Shown here in pieces: positions 5,362 through 50,483 of a stretch of 64,000 bases of DNA. The translations under genes were made by a program, and so were the position numbers. The DNA is from Patescibacteria group bacterium (GTDB lineage: Bacteria; Patescibacteriota; Saccharimonadia; CAILAD01; BJGX01), in the NCBI GenBank assembly GCA_026397045.1, contig JAPLVO010000008.1:20850-84849 (forward strand), in the 5' to 3' direction. The first letter of the stretch is position 1. Each line of letters opens with the position of its first letter. The notes under the pieces are model-generated. The model had not been told where the DNA came from. It saw nothing but the letters and a program-made list of their open reading frames with translations, and made no database searches.

Positions 5362-6684
5362 ATGAAATCATTATCAAGAGTAATAATTGTAGGGCAACCT
5401 AATGTCGGCAAAAGTGTTTTGTTTAATCGTTTAACCCATACCAACCAAGCGATTACATCTAACATAGCCCATACAACCCGCGACCAAAATCGCGGGGTTG
5501 TTAGGCATGATTCTGTTCAATTCGAGCTGGTTGATAGTGCAGGCTTTGCTAAGACCAGCGATGAGCTAAACAAACTTGCGATATCACTTATAGAGAGTGC
5601 TGTTAACAGCAGCGACTTGGTGATATTTGTGGCCGATGGCACCAGCGAACTAAACAATAACGACCTTAGACTTGCAAAGATGGTCATGAAGAGCCGACTT
5701 CATACTATCTTGCTCATAAATAAGTCAGACAAAAAGGAGTTCCTGGATAATCAAAACTATTTTAGAAAACTCGGTTTTGAGAACATCATGCAGGCCTCAG
5801 CTCAAAACGGCCAGGGGATTAATGACCTGCTAGATGAAATCGTATTAAAAATACCCCGTAAAAAAGCCATAAAAAAGCAGGAAAGTATTAAGGTTGCGAT
5901 TCTGGGGCGCCCCAATGTAGGTAAGAGTGCGCTACTAAATGCCATGGCCAAAGAAGATCTAGCACTGGTGAGTGATATTGCTGGTACGACCCGAGATGTT
6001 AATTCAGCCAGGCTCAAATACAAAGACACCACTTTAGAATTCTACGACACAGCTGGCCTTAGGCGAAGAGGTAAAATAGCGGCTGGGATTGAATTTTTTT
6101 CTACCACTAGAAGCAAATCGGCTATAGAAAAAGCTGATATCTGCCTGGTCCTAGTTGATGCTAAAGAGATGCTTACTAACCAGGATGAGCATATTATAGG
6201 CCTGATAAAAGATTCTCAGAAGGCGTTGATAGTAGTAGTTACGAAGTGGGATGCCATTGAAGACAAAGATGATAATCTGATGCAGTATCTGGCTAGCAAG
6301 ATAAGCGGCCAGCTCCAGTATGTCTGGTGGGCACCGCTTATTTTTACTTCTTCTGTTGATTTTCAGAACCTAGAGAAACTTAAGGAAATAATAGTTACCG
6401 TAAACAATAGATTAGAGACAACACTACCTACTACCAAGCTCAATGAAGTACTACGAAATGCCGTCAACAGACAACCTCCGGTGACCACTAAGGGCTACCA
6501 CGCCAAATTAAATTATATAACTCAGACAGCTACCAACCCACTGGAGCTGAGTATTTTTGGGACGCACCCTGAACTTATTCACTTTAGCTACCAGAGATAT
6601 CTGGAAAACCAGATTCGCAAAAACTTTGAACTTACTGGGATACCCATTAAAATACTGTTCAAGAGTAAGTACAAAGATAAATAA
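5362..6684 (+). CDS. der: ribosome-biogenesis GTPase Der (EngA)
   Basis: Two tandem G domains (GQPNVGKSVLFN and GRPNVGKSALLN) followed by a C-terminal KH-like domain. Confidence 0.9.
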   Translation: MKSLSRVIIVGQPNVGKSVLFNRLTHTNQAITSNIAHTTRDQNRGVVRHDSVQFELVDSAGFAKTSDELNKLAISLIESAVNSSDLVIFVADGTSELNNNDLRLAKMVMKSRLHTILLINKSDKKEFLDNQNYFRKLGFENIMQASAQNGQGINDLLDEIVLKIPRKKAIKKQESIKVAILGRPNVGKSALLNAMAKEDLALVSDIAGTTRDVNSARLKYKDTTLEFYDTAGLRRRGKIAAGIEFFSTTRSKSAIEKADICLVLVDAKEMLTNQDEHIIGLIKDSQKALIVVVTKWDAIEDKDDNLMQYLASKISGQLQYVWWAPLIFTSSVDFQNLEKLKEIIVTVNNRLETTLPTTKLNEVLRNAVNRQPPVTTKGYHAKLNYITQTATNPLELSIFGTHPELIHFSYQRYLENQIRKNFELTGIPIKILFKSKYKDK

Positions 6685-6699
6685 GCTATAATATAGACT

Positions 6700-7254
6700 A
6701 TGAAACTTATCATTGGCATTGGCAACCCAGGACAAGAATATATAAATACTCGACATAATTTAGGCTTTATGGTGCTCGACGAAATCTGCAAAACCATTAA
6801 AGTTTCTACTAAATTCGATAAGAAACTCAAAGCCGAGATGTATGCCACTATTATCGGCGGCGAGACCGTGATACTAGCCAAGCCCCAAACCTTCGTAAAC
6901 TTAAGCGGGGATAGTGTAGCTAAGATAGCTACTTTTTATAAAATACAAACCAAGGACATCTGGGTTGTGTCTGATGATTTAGCGCTGGACTTTGGTACCA
7001 CCCGAATAAGGGTTGGCGGGAGTAGCGGAGGGCACAATGGCCTAAGAGATATTATCGGCAAAGTAGGGGAAGATTTTACGCGCTTCAGGGCGGGGATTAG
7101 AAACGAATCAGCAGAAAAAATTTCAACTGAAAAATTCGTTCTACAAAAATTTAATCAAGAAGAGCTAGAAAACCTTGAGGTATTTATTAAAAGGGTAGCC
7201 GAGATAGTACTAGAATCACTAGAAAAAAGTCCAGAGCATAGCACTATAAAATAA
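6700..7254 (+). CDS. pth: peptidyl-tRNA hydrolase
   Basis: KLIIGIGNPGQEYINTRHNLGF N-terminus and HNG catalytic region. Confidence 0.9.
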   Translation: MKLIIGIGNPGQEYINTRHNLGFMVLDEICKTIKVSTKFDKKLKAEMYATIIGGETVILAKPQTFVNLSGDSVAKIATFYKIQTKDIWVVSDDLALDFGTTRIRVGGSSGGHNGLRDIIGKVGEDFTRFRAGIRNESAEKISTEKFVLQKFNQEELENLEVFIKRVAEIVLESLEKSPEHSTIK

Positions 7255-7623: not shown

Positions 7624-8502
7624 TTGGAAGCTACAGATTGGAGCAAGAATATGAATATACAACATATATACAATAAAGACAATGCCTATCCAATTCTCTT
7701 GCGGGGCATAGCTAGCCCACCTAAGTCATTATACGCAATTGGCGAAATCCCAGATTTACCTATGATAGCTATCGTTGGCACTCGAAAACCAACCGACTAT
7801 GGGCGCCAGATTTCCTATCAGCTTAGTAGCCAGTTAGCCAAAGCTGGATTTTGTGTGGTTAGCGGAATGGCCTTAGGGGTCGATGCCATTGTACATAAAG
7901 CTGCGATTGAGGCTGGCGGAAAAACTATCGCCGTGCTTGGATCTGGCCTTGATAAGCCCTACCCGATAAGTAACCATGGAATTTATAAAGAAATTGCTAG
8001 TGGTGCTGGAGCGGTAATTAGTGAATACCCATTAGGCACGCAGGCCTACAAGCAAAATTTCCCGGCCCGCAACAGAATTATAGCTGGCCTTTCATTGGCC
8101 ACCATAGTGACAGAGGCAGATGCTAAATCTGGCAGCCTAATAACTGCTAATTTTGCCCTTCAGGCCAACAGGACTGTGATGGCTGTACCCGGCAATATAT
8201 CTAGCCCACGGTCAGCTGGCCCAAATAACCTGATAAAGAATGGTGCGCAATTAATAACCAATATTGCAGATGTACTGGCTATATTGGGCTTACAACTACC
8301 ATCGATGGTCACAGCCAAGCCTCGTGCAGATAGCAGAGAGGAGGCTCGTATAATGGAGCAATTAGCAGACAGATCCTTAACCACCGAGCAATTGATTGAG
8401 CTAACCGAGATAGATGCTATTAATATTGCCTCGATTATTAGCCTGATGGAAATAACTGGAAAGATACGAAACCTAGGGGCTGGAAGCTGGATACTTACCT
8501 AG
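7624..8502 (+). CDS. dprA: DNA processing protein A (Smf)
   Basis: Rossmann-like GTRKPTDYG...VVSGMALGVDAIVHKAA...LGSGLDKPYP. The true start is probably the ATG at 7651. Confidence 0.85.
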   Translation: MEATDWSKNMNIQHIYNKDNAYPILLRGIASPPKSLYAIGEIPDLPMIAIVGTRKPTDYGRQISYQLSSQLAKAGFCVVSGMALGVDAIVHKAAIEAGGKTIAVLGSGLDKPYPISNHGIYKEIASGAGAVISEYPLGTQAYKQNFPARNRIIAGLSLATIVTEADAKSGSLITANFALQANRTVMAVPGNISSPRSAGPNNLIKNGAQLITNIADVLAILGLQLPSMVTAKPRADSREEARIMEQLADRSLTTEQLIELTEIDAINIASIISLMEITGKIRNLGAGSWILT

Positions 8503-8849: not shown

Positions 8850-8887
8850 GGGGTTGGTTACTGATGTAGCCAACCCCTAAATTTTTT
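8850..8887 (+). terminator. intrinsic terminator-like hairpin inside the dprA-topA noncoding gap
   Basis: GGGGTTGG-(12 nt)-CCAACCCC stem followed by TAAATTTTTT. No plus-strand CDS ends within 340 nt upstream. Confidence 0.45.
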
Positions 8888-9040
8888 AAACAATTAAATT
8901 TACACGATACTATGTTTCAGTTCGCCCGGAACGGCGGGTAAATTTGACACCACAAAGAAATATAATATATAGTTCTTTCTCTGTACGCATTTGCAAAAAA
9001 TCGAATAAAACATTAGCATTATTAAGAAAGAACAAATAGC

Positions 9041-11317
9041 ATGCCAAAGAATTTAGTAATAGTCGAATCTCCTGCAAAGGCGAAAACCATAGAAAAATAT
9101 CTGGGTGGTGATTTTGAAGTACTTAGCAGTATGGGTCATATTCGAGACCTCCCGAAGAGTGGTATAGGAATTGATATTGAAAACAAATTCAAGCCTGACT
9201 ATGCTGTGACGGCTGACAAAACGAAGATCGTAAGTGCCCTTAAAAAGGCTGCAAAAGGCAAGGAAGTGTGGCTAGCAACTGACGAAGACCGAGAAGGGGA
9301 GGCTATAAGCTGGCATTTATGCAGTGTGTTGAAGCTGGATCCTGCTAAGACCAAGCGAATCACCTTCCACGAGATTACAAAGCCGGCTATCGAGGAATCT
9401 ATTAAGCACCCTAGAAATGTCGACCTTAATATTGTGGATGCTCAGCAAGCCCGAAGGATACTAGACAGGCTGGTAGGCTATGAGCTCAGCCCAGTGCTGT
9501 GGAAAAAGATTCAAACTGGCTTGAGTGCTGGTAGAGTCCAATCGGTGGCTGTCCGAATAATAGTAGATAAAGAAAGAGAAATTGAAAAGTTTGATTTGAA
9601 ATATGATTACAAGGTTACGGGAGTTTTTACCTTGCCAGATGGCAATTCACTGAAAGCTGAGCTATCGACTAGGCTGCCTGATTCTAAGAAGACTGAAAAA
9701 TTTCTACAAGAGCTAATAGGCAAATCATATAAAGTATCAGATGTTACGAAAAGGCCTTCGAAGAAGAGCCCAGCACCACCTTTTACAACCTCTACTTTGC
9801 AGCAAGCTGCCTCTAGCCGGCTAGGGTATTCTGTTAAGCAAACCATGGTACTAGCCCAAAAGCTATACGAGGCTGGACATATTAGCTACATGCGTACCGA
9901 CTCAGTCAACCTTTCTAAGACAGCTCTTGATCAAGCTGAGAAGCAAATTCGATCCGAATATGGGGACAAATTTTATAACAAAAGGATATATAAAACCAAG
10001 AGCTCTAGTGCACAAGAAGCTCATGAAGCCATAAGGCCGACAGATTTTACCCTCTCTAGTGCGGGGGCTGAGCCCAAACAAATAAAGCTCTATAATTTGA
10101 TATGGTCGAGAGCAATTTCATCACAAATGGCTGATGCCCAAATCGAGAAAACTCGAGTAACTATCGCAATTGACTCTATAAAAGAAGTGTTTTTGGCTAA
10201 AGGTGAGGTAGTGGTCTTTCCGGGTTTTCTTTCAGCTTACCTATCGCCCAGCCAAGCCGACCCAAATATTTTGCCTAAGCTAACTGCTAATGACATTGTT
10301 ACTCCAACTGAAATATTAGCTAACCAAACTTATTCCCGACCACCAGCCAGGTATTCTGAAGCCTCCTTGGTTAAAAAGCTCGAATCGGAGGGGATTGGGC
10401 GTCCAAGCACATACGCTCCGACAATTTCCACTATACAGGCCCGAGGCTATGTACAAAAATCAAATGATGACGGCAAGACAAGAAATATTGAAGTATTTAA
10501 ACTCGCAGCTGGCGAGCTCACAAAAAATACCCAAGAAGAAAAATATGACACTGATCGGACTCGACTTGTACCGACAGATACCGGTACTGTTGTCACCGAT
10601 TTTTTGGTTAAGTATTTCACAGAGATCCTAGATCCACAATTTACTGCTAAAGTCGAAAAGCAGTTTGACTTGATCGCAGAAGGCAAGGAAAAGTGGCAGA
10701 AAATGTTAGGTGAGTTTTATAAGCCATTCCATGAACTTATCACTTCCTCGGAAGATATTTCTAGAAAGGAAGCTAGCCAAAATAGAGTGCTAGGCGTGGA
10801 CCCAAAGAGTAAAAAACCCATTATCGCCAGGCTGGGAAGGTTTGGTGCCATGATTCAGATCGGCGAGGTAGAGGACGAGGAAAAGCCTAAATTCGCACCA
10901 ATGCCAGAAGGTCGTAAGATTGCTGATGTAACTCTAGAAGAGGCACTGAAGATGTTCGAGCTCCCGAGGACTGTTGGCGAATTACAAGATGGCACCCAAA
11001 TAGTTGCCACTACCGGCCGTTTTGGACCCTATTTGAAGGCTGGAGCTCTAAATGTTTCGCTAAAAGGCGAGGACCCTTTTACCGTTACCGAGAAAAAAGC
11101 ACTAGAGCTAGTAGCTGAATACCAGAAAATGCTTGATGAGCGCATCATATTAGATTTCCCAGAAGAATCGATCCAGGTACTTAATGGGCGATACGGGCCA
11201 TATATTACTAATGGTAAATCTAATGCCAAGATTCCTAAGGGTACTGAGCCCAAAACACTCAAGCTGAAGGATTGCCAACTTCTTCTGAGTGCTAAAAAGA
11301 CGAAATCTAAAAAATAA
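9041..11317 (+). CDS. topA: DNA topoisomerase I
   Basis: Toprim N-terminus (LVIVESPAKAKTIEKYLG) and topo IA core. 758 aa. Confidence 0.9.
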   Translation: MPKNLVIVESPAKAKTIEKYLGGDFEVLSSMGHIRDLPKSGIGIDIENKFKPDYAVTADKTKIVSALKKAAKGKEVWLATDEDREGEAISWHLCSVLKLDPAKTKRITFHEITKPAIEESIKHPRNVDLNIVDAQQARRILDRLVGYELSPVLWKKIQTGLSAGRVQSVAVRIIVDKEREIEKFDLKYDYKVTGVFTLPDGNSLKAELSTRLPDSKKTEKFLQELIGKSYKVSDVTKRPSKKSPAPPFTTSTLQQAASSRLGYSVKQTMVLAQKLYEAGHISYMRTDSVNLSKTALDQAEKQIRSEYGDKFYNKRIYKTKSSSAQEAHEAIRPTDFTLSSAGAEPKQIKLYNLIWSRAISSQMADAQIEKTRVTIAIDSIKEVFLAKGEVVVFPGFLSAYLSPSQADPNILPKLTANDIVTPTEILANQTYSRPPARYSEASLVKKLESEGIGRPSTYAPTISTIQARGYVQKSNDDGKTRNIEVFKLAAGELTKNTQEEKYDTDRTRLVPTDTGTVVTDFLVKYFTEILDPQFTAKVEKQFDLIAEGKEKWQKMLGEFYKPFHELITSSEDISRKEASQNRVLGVDPKSKKPIIARLGRFGAMIQIGEVEDEEKPKFAPMPEGRKIADVTLEEALKMFELPRTVGELQDGTQIVATTGRFGPYLKAGALNVSLKGEDPFTVTEKKALELVAEYQKMLDERIILDFPEESIQVLNGRYGPYITNGKSNAKIPKGTEPKTLKLKDCQLLLSAKKTKSKK

Positions 11318-11319
11318 AG

Positions 11320-11348
11320 TTGACCGTAACTAGTATAAATGATATAAT
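11320..11348 (+). promoter_or_regulatory. consensus sigma-70-type promoter (TTGACC-17 nt-TATAAT)
   Basis: TTGACC at 11320-11325, a 17-nt spacer, TATAAT at 11343-11348. Sits about 55 nt upstream of the 11403 start. Confidence 0.4.
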
Positions 11349-11402
11349 AATATTCATGTGAAGTGGCCTAGAACGGCTATTTTGTGAATTAGAATAAACT
11401 TT

Positions 11403-12419
11403 ATGACTAAATATACTTCTCAACAGCTTAATACCCTCGTAGACGATGCTCTAGGTAGCCTTAAAAAAGACCGTGATAAGGAAGTCCTTCGGAGGCGTGG
11501 GGGTATTAATGTCGAGGCTCAGACGCTCGAACAGATTGGCCGAGATCTTAATATTACTCGAGAAAGGGTTCGTCAGATAGAAAAGGCGGCCCTTATTAAG
11601 ATTAGGGAGCTAAATAACCATGATTATGATTTTTCCAGGTCTATCATGGAGATATTATCGCAAAAAGGTGGGCTTGTAAGCCTGATGAGTGTAAATACCG
11701 AACTTGGGCTTGACCACACAAGAGAGCCTCAAGCTATATTTCTTATCAGGACCAACCCTTCGATGCTGTTTATTGACCGTAACGACCACCACCTGCGCAT
11801 CGTAGGTGATTCTTCGGTATTCACTCAAGAAAAGATTAAAGATGCCCATGATGCCCTCGTAGAAGTAATCAGGCAAAATGGTAAGCCAGCCAAGTTTGCC
11901 AGTATTTACAAGCTGATAGATGGTCCACACAGCGAAGATAGCCTGGCTGAGCTAGCTAAAGCTTCGAACTATCTAGCCGAGCTGGATGGTAGCTGGGGCC
12001 TAACTAGCTGGCCAGAGGTAAACCCAAAAAGTATTCGAGACAAAATATACCTTGTACTAAAAAAGGTGGGGCGCCCGATGCATTTCTCCGATATTGCTGA
12101 AAAAATTTCTTATTTAGCTGCTAACCCTAAAAAGGTGACTACCCAGGCTGTACACAATGAACTTATTAAAGACAAAAGATTTGTGTTGATAGGTCGTGGC
12201 ATCTATGCATTAGCAGAATGGGGCTACCGATCGGGCACTGTTGCTGATATCATAGAGGAGATCCTTAAAGAAGAGGCTGGACCTCTCAATAAAGATGAAA
12301 TTGTAAAGCGAGTTCTTGCAAGGCGTCAAGTAAAGACGACTACTATAGTCCTAAATCTTCAAGAAAAGCCACAATTTAAGAGAGTAAAAAAGGGCGTCTA
12401 TACTCTTACTAGTAGCTAA
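11403..12419 (+). CDS. sigma-70 region 4 (HTH) + C-terminal HARE-HTH-like winged-helix protein
   Basis: N-terminus VLRRRGGINVEAQTLEQIGRDLNITRERVRQIEKAALIKIRE is a textbook sigma region 4. Regions 1-3 are absent. The C-terminus HFSDIAEKI...GRGIYALAEWGY resembles the HARE-HTH of RNA polymerase delta. Confidence 0.55.
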   Translation: MTKYTSQQLNTLVDDALGSLKKDRDKEVLRRRGGINVEAQTLEQIGRDLNITRERVRQIEKAALIKIRELNNHDYDFSRSIMEILSQKGGLVSLMSVNTELGLDHTREPQAIFLIRTNPSMLFIDRNDHHLRIVGDSSVFTQEKIKDAHDALVEVIRQNGKPAKFASIYKLIDGPHSEDSLAELAKASNYLAELDGSWGLTSWPEVNPKSIRDKIYLVLKKVGRPMHFSDIAEKISYLAANPKKVTTQAVHNELIKDKRFVLIGRGIYALAEWGYRSGTVADIIEEILKEEAGPLNKDEIVKRVLARRQVKTTTIVLNLQEKPQFKRVKKGVYTLTSS

Positions 12420-12471: not shown

Positions 12472-15144
12472 ATGGAAATAATAATCAACATAATTACAAC
12501 TCTAGCCCAAACCATAGGAATTATCCTTTTCCAGTTTTGGGGCTGGGTTTTTATTGCCGGCTGGTTGGCCTATCAAATTTACTCTAATAATAAAAAAATC
12601 GCCTACATCGATCGAATCGACCATACATTATTACAAATCATAGTGCCCAAAGACAACGAAAAGAGTGAATTATCTGCCGAGCAGCTGTTTGCGAGTCTGC
12701 ATGGAATATTAAAACCAATCAAAGAAGATTCAGCCATTCAAGAGCACATTAGCTTCGAGATAGTTAGCCACGATCACCTCATATATTTTTATGTATGGTG
12801 TCCTAGGCACCTAAAGGACTATGTAGAGAGTCAAATATATGCTCAATACCCATTAGTCCAGATAACCGAAATGGATAAAGATTATAGTAAAAAGGACTTA
12901 TTGGGTCGAACCGCCTTTACGACAGAGGTTGTACTGGTTAAAAATCAAATCTTCCCTATAAAAACATTCGCAACATTCGAGGTTGACCCTTTAGCAGGGC
13001 TAACTACTGTACTGTCGAGTCTTGGTGATAGCGAAGAAATTTGGATTCAAATGCTACTGGAACCAGTCGATGACAGCTGGCATAAGGCATCTTTAGCCTA
13101 TGTAGATGAAGTCAAGAATGGAAAGAAGTTAGGACTATCGGACGATTTACGCAACAAGTCCTTGAAGGCTCCCGGAAAACTAATCAGCAGCTTGGTCTCC
13201 GCTGCTTTTACGCCTGAAACATACCGTGAAAATTCATCGGCAAAGAGTAAAGGTGGTGATAAAAAAGAATTATCTCCAGGGCAGACCACACTTTTGGCGG
13301 CCGTTGAAGCAAAAGCAGAGAAGCTAGGCTATGGGGTTAAGATACGAGTATGCTATATTGGCCAAAATCCAGCGGCTGCAAAGCAACGCTTGCAGGCTCT
13401 GGTTGGTGGCTTTAAGCAATTCAATACAGTCAATTTGAATGGTTTTGGTGGAACCCAAATGGTTGAGGGGACGGATGGGCTAGAAGACTACCAATCGAGA
13501 AAATTCGAAGACGATGGCTACATACTAAATATCGAAGAGGCGGCTAGTATATTTCATTTGCCCCACACCAGCGTGGAGACCCCCAATATAGCCTACACCT
13601 CGACCAAAGTAGGGGAGCCGCCCGCGGGACTACCAACCCTAAATAACACTAAAGCCGAAGACCTAAGCCTGTTTGGCAGCACTACTTTTAGGCAGGGGAA
13701 TATAAAATTCGGAATTAAAAGAATAGACCGCGAGAGGCACCTCTATATTATTGGAAAGAGTGGAGTCGGAAAATCATTTATGCTTAACTTGCTGACTCTG
13801 AGTGATATATATCAAAATGAAGGCTTCGCGGTAGTGGACCCACATGGGGATTTTGCACAAGACATTATGAAGTTTATACCTGAGAATCGAATCAAAGATG
13901 TTATCTACATCAACCCAGATGATTCCAACTTCCCCGTAGCATTTAACCCCATGGAGTACACGGATGAAAATCGGCGAAATAATATAGCCTCCGAAATAGT
14001 TGGTGTACTAAAAAAGATGTTCGGAGATAGCTGGGGTCCTAGACTAGAGCATATTTTGAGGTTTACTCTATTGGCATTACTAGAGACACCCGACACAACA
14101 ATGCTAGGCATTACCCGAATGTTAACCGACAAAAACTACCGCAAAACGATTGTGGATAACATATCTGATCCTATCGTGAAAGCCTTCTGGGTTACAGAGT
14201 TCGCTAGCTGGAACGATAAATTTGCCTCAGAAGCTGTTCAGCCAGTCCTCAACAAAGTTGGGGCCTTCACTGCTGTGCCGATCGTTAGAAATATTATCGG
14301 CCAGCCTAAGAGCTCATTTTCATTCAGAGAAGCTATGGATAATGGCAAGATAATTATTGTCAATTTAAGTAGGGGCTTAATTGGTGAGGACAACGCCGCA
14401 ATATTAGGTTCACTAATTATTACCAAAATCCAACTCGATGCCATGAGTAGATCTGATATAAAAAATGTTGCTGATCGAAGGCCATTCTACCTATATGTAG
14501 ATGAGTTTCAGAATTTTGCGACCGAGTCTTTTGCCGTCATATTATCCGAAGCCCGAAAGTATGGCCTAAGATTGACAGTAGCTAATCAGTACATCTCGCA
14601 GATGCCTGATGAAGTTAGGGACGCGGTGTTTGGCAATGTTGGCTCAATGGTAACCTTCCGTGTTGGTGCTGATGACGCCGACTACCTATCAAAGTACTTT
14701 GAGCCGGTATTTGAGCCTAAAGACCTTGTAAACCTTGATAAGCGAGATATATATGTATCTATGAGCATTGGCGGACAAACCTCTAATGCGTTTAGTGCCA
14801 AGAGCCTAAATATGCCAACTCCACAATATGATCATACCCAAGCAATTATAGAAAACTCGCGAGAGAATTACTCTTTGAAGAGGGCAGATGTAGAGGCTCT
14901 AATCGCAAACTGGGTATCCCCGGAAAGTCCCAAGGGAAATGAATCTAATGGCAAACCACAGTTGACTGGAGGCAATAGTGCTAATCCCGTCGCTAACACA
15001 GCTTCTGCTAAGCCTGCTCAGATAAGGCCAGAAATAAGCGGCGTAGAGCCCAAAAAATATAGTGAGCTGATTAAAAGCAAGCCTAATACTAATCGCAAAA
15101 GATACAACAATAGCAACAAGTATAAGAGTAATAAGTCATATTAG
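12472..15144 (+). CDS. membrane-anchored VirD4/TraG/HerA-superfamily (AAA_10-like) P-loop ATPase; possible type IV coupling protein
   Basis: Two N-terminal TM helices. Walker A YIIGKSGVGKSF, then VVDPHGDF. Walker B FYLYVDEFQNF. ARKYGLRLTVANQYISQM and FGNVGSMVTFRVGADDADYLS motifs typical of T4CP/HerA. Basic low-complexity C-terminal tail. Confidence 0.55.
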   Translation: MEIIINIITTLAQTIGIILFQFWGWVFIAGWLAYQIYSNNKKIAYIDRIDHTLLQIIVPKDNEKSELSAEQLFASLHGILKPIKEDSAIQEHISFEIVSHDHLIYFYVWCPRHLKDYVESQIYAQYPLVQITEMDKDYSKKDLLGRTAFTTEVVLVKNQIFPIKTFATFEVDPLAGLTTVLSSLGDSEEIWIQMLLEPVDDSWHKASLAYVDEVKNGKKLGLSDDLRNKSLKAPGKLISSLVSAAFTPETYRENSSAKSKGGDKKELSPGQTTLLAAVEAKAEKLGYGVKIRVCYIGQNPAAAKQRLQALVGGFKQFNTVNLNGFGGTQMVEGTDGLEDYQSRKFEDDGYILNIEEAASIFHLPHTSVETPNIAYTSTKVGEPPAGLPTLNNTKAEDLSLFGSTTFRQGNIKFGIKRIDRERHLYIIGKSGVGKSFMLNLLTLSDIYQNEGFAVVDPHGDFAQDIMKFIPENRIKDVIYINPDDSNFPVAFNPMEYTDENRRNNIASEIVGVLKKMFGDSWGPRLEHILRFTLLALLETPDTTMLGITRMLTDKNYRKTIVDNISDPIVKAFWVTEFASWNDKFASEAVQPVLNKVGAFTAVPIVRNIIGQPKSSFSFREAMDNGKIIIVNLSRGLIGEDNAAILGSLIITKIQLDAMSRSDIKNVADRRPFYLYVDEFQNFATESFAVILSEARKYGLRLTVANQYISQMPDEVRDAVFGNVGSMVTFRVGADDADYLSKYFEPVFEPKDLVNLDKRDIYVSMSIGGQTSNAFSAKSLNMPTPQYDHTQAIIENSRENYSLKRADVEALIANWVSPESPKGNESNGKPQLTGGNSANPVANTASAKPAQIRPEISGVEPKKYSELIKSKPNTNRKRYNNSNKYKSNKSY

Positions 15145-15454: not shown

Positions 15455-16282
15455 TTACTTGTAGAAGGCCCGGCCATCAACCCTTAAATCAATATATTCA
15501 GATGGTTTTTTATTCTCTGCGGCAAGTAAATCTAGTGTAGAGCTAAGCGATCTAATTTGCGATTCTGGTGATGCCAGAGAGTTAAATCTGATTTCGTACC
15601 CAGAGGTAGTTTGGACTCTGAGTTCTACAGTGGTATCTGATACGGACATCAGACTTGGCCCGAGATTACTCGACTTAATAAATTCGAAGACCTTATTGGT
15701 AAAGTCGACAAAATCCCTGCCGACAACTCTGTCTCCAGTTTTGGTAGGAATGTTACTATTATCATTTACAAGGGGTAGTTCGCCAAGCTGACCCGCCTGA
15801 AGCTCACTCATCACGCTACCATTGACCGACACTACATAACTCTTACTACCAGTTTTCCAGACCAACGAAGGTTTTTGTTCATCTGTCTTTATGCTAAGCC
15901 TGTTAGGAAAAGATTTCTGCACTATGATGGATTCTTGGCCCGTGAAAGTTTTCTGCAAGCTAGTCTTTAACTCTCCTCCATTCATAAAAAGCCAATTTCT
16001 TCCCAGTAGTCTAGATGACAAATACTTGTCTGTCTCTTCTTTTAGCCCCTGTGATAAAGATGTGTTCGGTCCTTGTACATCTACCCTACTTATCAGAAAT
16101 AGATTAGAGAAAAAAACTGCATAGGTAACCAATGTTAAAGCAATAATATAGGGAGAATAATGCCATAGTCTTCGCAGTATATCAGATAGCCTCATTGCTT
16201 CTTTGGGCTTGGCTGAGCCATCTGGATCATTACTTTTTAGAGGCATAAATTCATAAGCCCTTTTTACATCTCGACGCTTCAA
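15455..16282 (-). CDS. ftsQ: cell division protein FtsQ/DivIB (POTRA)
   Basis: Single TM helix followed by a POTRA-like ISRVDVQG region. Last gene of the dcw cluster, immediately after murG. Confidence 0.65.
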   Translation of the reverse strand: MKRRDVKRAYEFMPLKSNDPDGSAKPKEAMRLSDILRRLWHYSPYIIALTLVTYAVFFSNLFLISRVDVQGPNTSLSQGLKEETDKYLSSRLLGRNWLFMNGGELKTSLQKTFTGQESIIVQKSFPNRLSIKTDEQKPSLVWKTGSKSYVVSVNGSVMSELQAGQLGELPLVNDNSNIPTKTGDRVVGRDFVDFTNKVFEFIKSSNLGPSLMSVSDTTVELRVQTTSGYEIRFNSLASPESQIRSLSSTLDLLAAENKKPSEYIDLRVDGRAFYK

Positions 16283-32400: not shown

Positions 32401-32475
32401 TGGGGCGTCGCCAAGTGGTAAGGCAACGGTTTTTGGTACCGTCATACGCAGGTTCGAACCCTGCCGCCCCAGCCA
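32401..32475 (+). tRNA. tRNA-Gln (anticodon UUG)
   Basis: Cloverleaf folded by hand: acceptor UGGGGCG/CGCCCCA with the U1-A72 pair typical of tRNA-Gln, anticodon loop UUUUGGU, T-arm GCAGG-TTCGAAC-CCTGC, 3' CCA encoded. Close match to E. coli tRNA-Gln. Confidence 0.9.
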
Positions 32476-50298: not shown

Positions 50299-50483
50299 CC
50301 TCCGATGCTTTAAATTTAATGTGCATGATTACCAAACAAAAAGCCCCCGGTAATAAACCTAGGACCTTAAAGTTTGAAAATCTATTGTTAGATTTGTAAC
50401 CTCATGTAGCGAATTAAGTCATTTAGACTGCTACAGTCTTTGGTAATCGATATTATTATAGCAGCTTAGCGGTGAATATTCAA
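50299..50483 (-). promoter_or_regulatory. rplJ 5' leader (possible L10 autoregulatory leader)
   Basis: 185-nt untranslated spacer upstream of rplJ. Inferred from the conserved L10-leader position only. Confidence 0.25.

Follow-up and report, generated by a model that had tools for sequence, protein, structure and literature searches.

We report that a 64,000-nucleotide stretch of a Patescibacteria group genome (Saccharimonadia; contig JAPLVO010000008.1, positions 20,850 to 84,849, hereafter the window) encodes a 338-residue protein in which a complete region 4 of a primary sigma-70 factor (sigma4) is followed by four predicted winged helices of the HARE type, and that this sigma4-HARE family is universal in the Patescibacteria as a lineage-wide housekeeping gene. 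The window protein has the same sequence as GenBank MCX6804569.1, which is recorded as a 'hypothetical protein' of a Patescibacteria group metagenome-assembled genome (MAG), and its start methionine falls at the same position in homologues. A sequence-only reading of the window had described an N-terminal sigma-70 region 4 lacking regions 1 to 3, joined to a C-terminus with a delta-like HARE helix-turn-helix (HTH) fold, expressed from a TTGACC-17-TATAAT promoter and placed directly upstream of an ATPase resembling type IV coupling proteins (T4CPs). We regard the observation as a real, well-supported and testable lead, not an artefact, and the mechanism proposed below as a conjecture.

Pfam Sigma70_r4 matched residues 23-69 of the protein (E = 1.2e-11, 44.3 bits against a cut-off of 24.1), and a profile built from 105 family members found region 4 of group-1/2 sigma factors in the PDB at E values of 1e-19 to 1e-20, with no sigma region other than region 4 matched by that profile. 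Foldseek placed the N-terminus on sigma4 structures with a root-mean-square deviation of 1.2-2.4 Å and 35-44% identity, and the head is 43% identical to region 4 of E. coli sigma70. The recognition helix reads TRERVRQIE here and TRERIRQIE in sigma70, so that R53, E54, R55, R57 and Q58 align with R584, E585, R586, R588 and Q589 of the E. coli protein, the classical -35-reading residues. T52 and these five residues are invariant or nearly so among the 105 diverse members, whose overall identity is ~35%, a degree of conservation expected if DNA reading has been retained.

Neither Sigma70_r2 nor Sigma70_r3 was found in the window protein by Pfam at E ≤ 1, nor by NCBIfam. The NCBIfam sigma models (RpoD, RpoS, RpoH and SigA-type) scored 20-50 bits against cut-offs of 240-800, and the generic sigma70-ECF model TIGR02937 gave 28.8 bits against a cut-off of 42.9, all of them aligning solely by their region-4 positions (for example, positions 554-618 of a 631-position model). 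The lack of region 2, seen in both sequence and modelled fold, means that the protein is no sigma factor, and without regions 2 and 3 it would have neither -10 recognition nor the main core-binding surface. It shares with primary sigma-70 factors (RpoD, SigA, RpoS) the full 4.1 + 4.2 fold, the sequence and the -35-reading arginines, but its region 4 stands free at the N-terminus and leads into four winged helices, and regions 1.2, 2 and 3, and hence -10 recognition and DNA melting, are lacking. The region-4 assignment of the sequence-only reading is thus upheld by Pfam and the PDB profile, and the missing regions, as far as regions 2 and 3 are concerned, by both of these and NCBIfam. The outcome that reading had named as its own refutation, a complete extracytoplasmic function (ECF) or other sigma factor that had been misread, was rejected, given that regions 2 and 3 are absent and winged helices begin after residue 72.

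The remainder of the protein is predicted to be an array of winged helices, which gives an architecture of sigma4 plus four HARE-type winged helices (Table 1). An AlphaFold2 (AF2) model of the whole protein, made from a 28-sequence alignment, had a mean predicted local distance difference test (pLDDT) score of 84 and resolved sigma4 helices at residues 6-70, a middle region, and C-terminal winged helices at residues 211-270 and 280-335. When residues 72-200 were modelled alone, two helix-strand-helix-helix-strand-strand units were obtained (pLDDT 92, predicted template modelling score 0.82). Pfam returned no match for this middle region, and a Foldseek search with its model retrieved tandem winged-helix proteins alone, none at E ≤ 0.001 and no close solved relative among them. 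With the whole-protein model, the Foldseek matches in the PDB beyond sigma4 were again tandem winged-helix proteins (UFL1/DDRGK1, the SelB C-terminus and Pol III RPC62/RPC3). The second middle winged helix closes with a conserved wing motif, LDGxWGLxxWP, and ends here in LDGSWGLTSWPE, which resembles the wing motif WGLR.WY of the RNA polymerase delta subunit. Aligned by hhalign, the middle pair matched the C-terminal pair over its whole length (112 columns, probability 80%, E = 1.3e-5), which suggests that the two pairs arose by internal duplication.

The two pairs differ in character, the middle pair being variable and mildly acidic and the C-terminal pair basic and extremely conserved. Pfam HARE-HTH (PF05066) matched residues 213-273 when the whole protein was scanned (E = 1e-10, 42.3 bits against a cut-off of 25.9) and matched the first C-terminal winged helix scanned alone at E = 2.3e-6. 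This module is the most conserved part of the protein (NPKKVTTQAVHNELIKDKRFVLIGRGIYALAEWGY), with H227, N252, L254, G266 and Y268 invariant in the 105 members. The second C-terminal module (residues 276-338), scanned alone, gave a sub-threshold 21.9 bits to the same model. Net charges are +6 and +5 for these two modules, the isoelectric point of the window protein is 9.4, and the median net charge in the family is +13. That sigma4 and the two C-terminal HARE modules are the basic parts fits nucleic-acid binding. The hidden Markov model searches and structure prediction that the sequence-only reading had called for (here Pfam, NCBIfam, the PDB profile, AF2 and Foldseek) therefore confirmed both end domains of the two-part protein it had pictured, but the protein is not just two halves, since residues 72-200 add two further winged helices.

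The proposed likeness of the C-terminus to delta held for the fold, which Pfam identifies as HARE-HTH, and was weakened for delta itself, and for the delta-like accessory factor suggested by the sequence-only reading, by a sub-cut-off score and by charge. The delta model TIGR04567 reached 40.9 bits on residues 210-273, below its cut-off of 42, and comparison with the solved S. aureus delta was marginal (E = 0.14 with the single sequence, 0.48 with the profile). A HARE-type winged helix is common to both proteins, its signature in the S. aureus delta alignment being ...D.RF....G.W/Y.L..W, but Firmicutes delta (RpoE) has a single, N-terminal HARE domain and a long acidic disordered tail, whereas in the window protein the HARE domains are repeated and C-terminal, and four winged helices plus a sigma4 head stand against one winged helix. 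Delta is also dispensable in Bacillus, in contrast to the essential counterpart of the window gene in Southlakia described below. The acidic C-terminal tail through which delta works carries a net charge of -47 (PMC7749165). The protein was accordingly rejected as a delta orthologue on its sub-cut-off TIGR04567 score, its marginal S. aureus match, its basic charge and its lack of an acidic tail.

Table 1. Features of the sigma4-HARE gene and its neighbours, in window positions.
Feature	Position	Strand	Details
Whole open reading frame	11403..12419	+	338 residues, ATG start; sigma4 plus four winged helices
Sigma-70-type promoter	11320..11348	+	-35 TTGACC, 17-nt spacer, extended -10 TGaTATAAT; score 11/12
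5' untranslated leader, ~50 nt	11349..11402	+	modest hairpin 11358-11386
Sigma-70 region 4 (4.1 + 4.2 HTH), complete, primary-sigma type	11403..11615	+	residues 1-71; Pfam, NCBIfam, PDB, Foldseek
Two diverged, mildly acidic winged helices	11616..12017	+	residues 72-205; AF2, hhalign
HARE-HTH winged helix 1, basic	12033..12227	+	residues 211-275; Pfam
HARE-type winged helix 2, basic	12228..12416	+	residues 276-338; AF2 winged-helix topology
VirD4/TrwB-like (T4CP-like) ATPase	12472..15144	+	890 residues, membrane-anchored; Pfam TrwB_AAD_bind, TraG-D_C, DUF87
dprA (DNA_processg_A)	7624-8502		upstream of topA; Pfam
topA	9041-11317		directly upstream of sigma4-HARE gene; Pfam
275-residue open reading frame in FtsQ position, end of dcw cluster	15455-16282	-	no Pfam match at E ≤ 1e-4

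A word-indexed search returned at least 8000 matches, and the best 120 all had the sigma4-HARE architecture; the named ones, from Saccharibacteria or Patescibacteria, are called either 'hypothetical protein' or 'DNA-directed RNA polymerase delta subunit'. HMMER over 1.84 billion cluster representatives found 586 clusters (50% identity) at E ≤ 1e-30, almost all of 330-400 residues. When one genome per species was scanned, at least 371 loci were found and 80 were kept for analysis. All 80 are from Patescibacteria, spanning Saccharimonadia, Nomura-, Peregrini-, Peri-, Gracili-, Berkel-, Uhr- and Doudnabacteria and Minisyncoccales. Sigma70_r4 was detected in each of the 105 diverse members and HARE-HTH in all but one (104/105). 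Annotations across the family vary from 'hypothetical' to 'RpoS' (Southlakia) and 'delta' (JGI). Databases thus already contain the sequence and its family, which also appear in an essentiality table in the literature; no functional study of the family was found in our literature searches, and no characterised protein has the sigma4-plus-four-winged-helix architecture.

A rare set of longer, non-Patescibacteria relatives bears on what the array might do. P0242 (636 residues; E = 6e-49 to the query) begins with RNA_pol_A_CTD, the C-terminal domain of the polymerase alpha subunit (alphaCTD; E = 8.6e-11), followed by Sigma70_r4 and then three HARE-HTH repeats. Nine more such proteins (P0281-P0289; 600-1040 residues, often with HHH_5) bring the group to 10 clusters, one protein being from a non-Patescibacteria MAG. 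Like the window protein, they place a sigma region 4 ahead of a series of HARE-type winged helices; unlike it, they have the additional N-terminal RNA_pol_A_CTD, are longer, and have no T4CP neighbour beside their genes (loci L081-L083). The fusion of two heads that read promoter-upstream DNA, alphaCTD and sigma4, to a winged-helix array is the strongest indirect argument for a promoter role. The 2012 HARE-HTH paper of Aravind and Iyer reportedly noted bacterial proteins joining features of RNA polymerase alpha and sigma, and the sigma4/HARE combination, on computational grounds. In loci L082 and L083 the gene lies between a DnaG-zinc-ribbon/PolA fusion and a PAPS-reductase-family gene, a setting that looks mobile or related to DNA modification.

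Other variants within the family were also seen. Some Peribacteria have two sigma4-HARE paralogues ~3.5 kb apart (at 1436-2470 and 5956-7065 in locus L052, and also in L048 and L056), and L052 has a VirD4-like ATPase on the opposite strand at 9933-12410. In P0206 (659 residues, from a 29.8-kb ENA contig) a single called protein joins a SecD/SecF C-terminal domain to an entire sigma4-HARE protein, which may be a true fusion or the product of a missed stop or merged gene call.

Comparison of upstream regions indicates that the promoter of the gene is real and conserved in the family. Counting a match as a score of at least 11/12 within 200 nt upstream, such a promoter precedes 44 of 81 orthologues, compared with 27 of the 462 other genes that these loci contain (Fisher p = 4e-24, with loci that are phylogenetically non-independent), and 7 of 2000 shuffled 200-nt segments reached 11/12. 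The block gTTGACc...TGaTATAAT was the sole one conserved in 19 aligned orthologous upstream regions. The promoter named in the sequence-only reading, itself scoring 11/12, is therefore borne out, and conservation of a near-consensus promoter fits, and suggests, strong constitutive expression of the sigma4-HARE gene. The leader between promoter and start codon holds a hairpin with a folding energy of -10.8 kcal/mol (z = -2.0), a stem-loop that may be stabilising or regulatory, and Rfam at gathering thresholds gave no RNA element in the leader. Leaders of six other loci (L001, L002, L005, L009, L010 and L012) have unrelated inverted repeats at the hairpin position.

The counterpart of the window gene in Southlakia epibionticum, the single bacterium of this candidate phyla radiation to have been studied genetically, is SEML1_0294, identified by architecture and by the shared order dprA-topA-x-gene-T4CP. 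Its 349-residue product bears the annotation 'RNA polymerase sigma factor RpoS'; PF04545 falls at residues 27-72 and PF05066 at residues 225-283. It is classed as one tri-helical plus three winged domains, and its family is marked as both core and enriched in Patescibacteria (Wang et al. 2023, PMC10633639, Tables S1 and S2). In the transposon sequencing of that study it was essential at 3/3 time points, insertions falling from 24 in the input DNA to 1-2 after selection. The local order is SEML1_0298 (dprA), 0296 (topA), a hydrolase, 0294 and then 0293, a VirD4-like ATPase that is also flagged as core and Patescibacteria-enriched and is non-essential (PMC10633639). SEML1_0294 is absent from the main-text discussion of the paper.

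In the window the sigma4-HARE gene is separated from the VirD4-like ATPase gene by 52 nt with no terminator between them, and the two are probably operon partners. Pfam confirmed the ATPase named in the sequence-only reading, and the co-occurrence check proposed there was positive: 50 of 81 loci have the ATPase gene as the next one downstream, on the same strand and separated by -14 to 114 nt. This adjacency spans Saccharimonadia, Berkel-, Uhr- and Doudnabacteria and Minisyncoccales, which shows that the two form an old, widely kept gene pair; it is missing from oral Saccharibacteria loci (L024-L036) and from Peregrini- and Gracilibacteria. In a survey devoted to type IV secretion across the Patescibacteria, 2,918 genomes held 5,713 VirD4-like genes, 148 of them near virB4, and the authors suggested that VirD4-like genes were possibly exapted for another function (PMC12102498). 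The ATPase of the window has an N-terminal two-helix membrane hairpin, ~350 residues without family assignment before the P-loop domain, a TraM-recognition-type domain and a basic low-complexity tail. Its best PADLOC match is mad8 (2e-18), and it has a weak NCBIfam match to the archaeal DNA-import ATPase CedD (2.9e-7).

We tentatively favor, while stopping short of calling it probable, a role for the protein as a lineage-specific general promoter or RNA polymerase factor and not as an alternative sigma. The sigma4 head would read -35-like TTGACA DNA and perhaps dock on the beta-flap of RNA polymerase, and the C-terminal winged-helix pair would hold the protein on neighboring DNA or on RNA polymerase, much as delta does through its HARE domain. 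Sequence features point to a basic DNA-binding product, Patescibacteria-wide and probably abundant, for which we infer the DNA specificity, the RNA polymerase contact and the promoter role. All three module types detectable in the window protein and its rare relatives (sigma4, delta-type HARE-HTH and RNA_pol_A_CTD) come from RNA polymerase-associated proteins. Lineage-specific factors of this kind have precedents in CarD and RbpA of Actinobacteria, which are essential, constitutive general factors contacting both promoter DNA and RNA polymerase; the analogy would be functional, with no relationship of sequence or fold. In phage T4, gp33 stands in for sigma region 4 at the beta-flap and links RNA polymerase to the DNA-tracking gp45, and by analogy with this small protein a free sigma4 could couple to a DNA-translocating ATPase, although gp33 shares no homology with sigma4 and has no DNA-binding activity. 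An elaboration along these lines, which we consider rather doubtful, is that the protein is an extra essential component of basal transcription in Patescibacteria, a second -35-reading or flap-binding head that may couple promoter or polymerase to the VirD4-like translocase.

Several points weigh against a general promoter or polymerase factor. In holoenzyme the beta-flap is already occupied by RpoD region 4, the window shows no enrichment of TTGACA (20 sites, where 23.7 would be expected), the HARE likeness to delta is at superfamily level only, and the orthology of SEML1_0294 rests on architecture and synteny rather than on sequence alignment. The deep operon linkage with the VirD4-like ATPase is left unexplained by a general transcription role. 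HARE-HTH domains elsewhere, in nuclease fusions, have been proposed to read DNA with modified bases (PMC10853773). Finally, the Southlakia RpoD, SEML1_0063 (332 residues), is complete, with regions 1.2, 2, 3 and 4, and essential, which leaves no obvious missing function to fill (PMC10633639). A split sigma, in which RpoD would lack region 4, was rejected on the same complete RpoD, in the one genome with data; no rpoD was found in the window or the 80 loci. A nucleoid protein with abundant TTGACA sites was also rejected, as the hexamer is not over-represented in the window, which is a weak test.

The operon linkage would be accounted for if the protein were a DNA-recognition or substrate-adaptor subunit, or a dedicated regulator, of the VirD4-like ATPase, an explanation that we judge unlikely although it merits serious attention. 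By analogy with the winged-helix gamma domain of FtsK, the winged HTH of Streptomyces TraB and the relaxosome accessory proteins that dock on T4CPs, the HTH array could select or load DNA for uptake or export. The direct downstream position of the ATPase in 50 of 81 loci and the lack of a terminator in the window speak for it, as do the core and Patescibacteria-enriched status of both genes, the nearness of the pair to dprA and topA in the window and in Southlakia, and the TraM-recognition-type domain of the ATPase. Most Patescibacteria T4CP homologues, moreover, lie apart from virB4 and were possibly exapted (PMC12102498). Yet the Southlakia ATPase is dispensable and the sigma4-HARE gene is essential, so an exclusive partnership cannot account for the function. 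Linkage is also lost in L024-L036 and in Peregrini- and Gracilibacteria, the alphaCTD-sigma4-HARE relatives have no T4CP neighbor, and the head is specifically a primary-sigma region 4 and no generic HTH; an adaptor would make sense of the operon and still leave the differing essentiality of the two genes unaccounted for. A related idea, the ATPase as a substitute for FtsK with the window protein as its gamma domain, was set aside as unnecessary, since the Southlakia FtsK is essential and brings a gamma domain of its own (PMC10633639).

The invariant -35-reading residues, the three basic HTH modules and the conserved TTGAC(A/C) box in the gene's own promoter would also suit a competitor for -35 elements or a global repressor that makes no contact with RNA polymerase, occupies -35-like hexamers and the DNA beside them, limits access of the RpoD holoenzyme, sets global promoter strength and might repress its own promoter. 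This is the sigma mimic or anti-sigma competitor suggested by the sequence-only reading. We find this improbable, in that isolated sigma region 4 binds -35 DNA weakly, TTGACA is not over-represented in the window, essentiality is less expected of a pure repressor, and C-terminal winged helices as extremely conserved as these suggest that a fixed macromolecular partner exists. Very improbable, in our estimate, is that the HARE winged helices read DNA modification and tell self from host or incoming DNA in connection with ATPase and DprA traffic. HARE-HTH-nuclease fusions are proposed to recognize modified bases (PMC10853773), the L082 relative sits beside a PolA-primase fusion and a PAPS-reductase-family gene, dprA is nearby and Saccharibacteria are naturally competent (PMC10633639), but the conserved neighborhood contains no modification enzyme, and universality and essentiality set the gene apart from typical conflict systems. 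A defense-system component was rejected because the sole PADLOC match was to the sigma4 part of MzaA, from the anti-phage MZA system, at 26.8 bits; residues 23-69 alone match the region-4 end of the MzaA models (NCBIfam 49.4 bits against a cut-off of 800). The names that databases give the protein, a true alternative sigma ('RpoS') or a Firmicutes delta orthologue (the JGI label), are scarcely tenable: sigma region 4 and HARE-HTH are present and the NCBIfam delta model scores 40.9 bits, but with no region 2 or 3, sigma models far below cut-off, a sub-cut-off delta score, and a basic protein with no acidic tail, both identities are already contradicted by domain content.

Patescibacteria make up a large share of bacterial diversity and almost nothing is known of their gene regulation. 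Should the protein prove to be a general promoter or polymerase factor, it would represent a lineage-defining change to the bacterial transcription apparatus and would join CarD and RbpA as the second known case in which an essential initiation factor is confined to one clade. As a partner of the VirD4-like ATPase, it would instead offer a handle on thousands of orphan coupling-protein genes. Under any of these explanations the sigma-factor and delta-subunit annotations are misleading and due for correction, and genetic tools exist in Southlakia that make the question testable.

Genes around the pair were annotated as well. Upstream, a separate strong promoter serves topA at 8944-8973 (TTGACA-18-TATAGT, 11/12), and a hairpin resembling a terminator lies before it at 8850-8877. 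After the ATPase, on the other strand, lies a dcw cluster with MurG, FtsW, MraY, a penicillin-binding protein and RsmH, and the open reading frame in its FtsQ position is conserved in related loci at 25-53% identity (tblastn). Across the window, Rfam at gathering score gave only a tRNA at 32401-32472 (+) and a ribosomal protein L10 leader at 50328-50461 (-). Positions 1-1151 hold a two-component pair, comprising a histidine-kinase ATPase fragment that runs off the window start and a receiver-domain protein.

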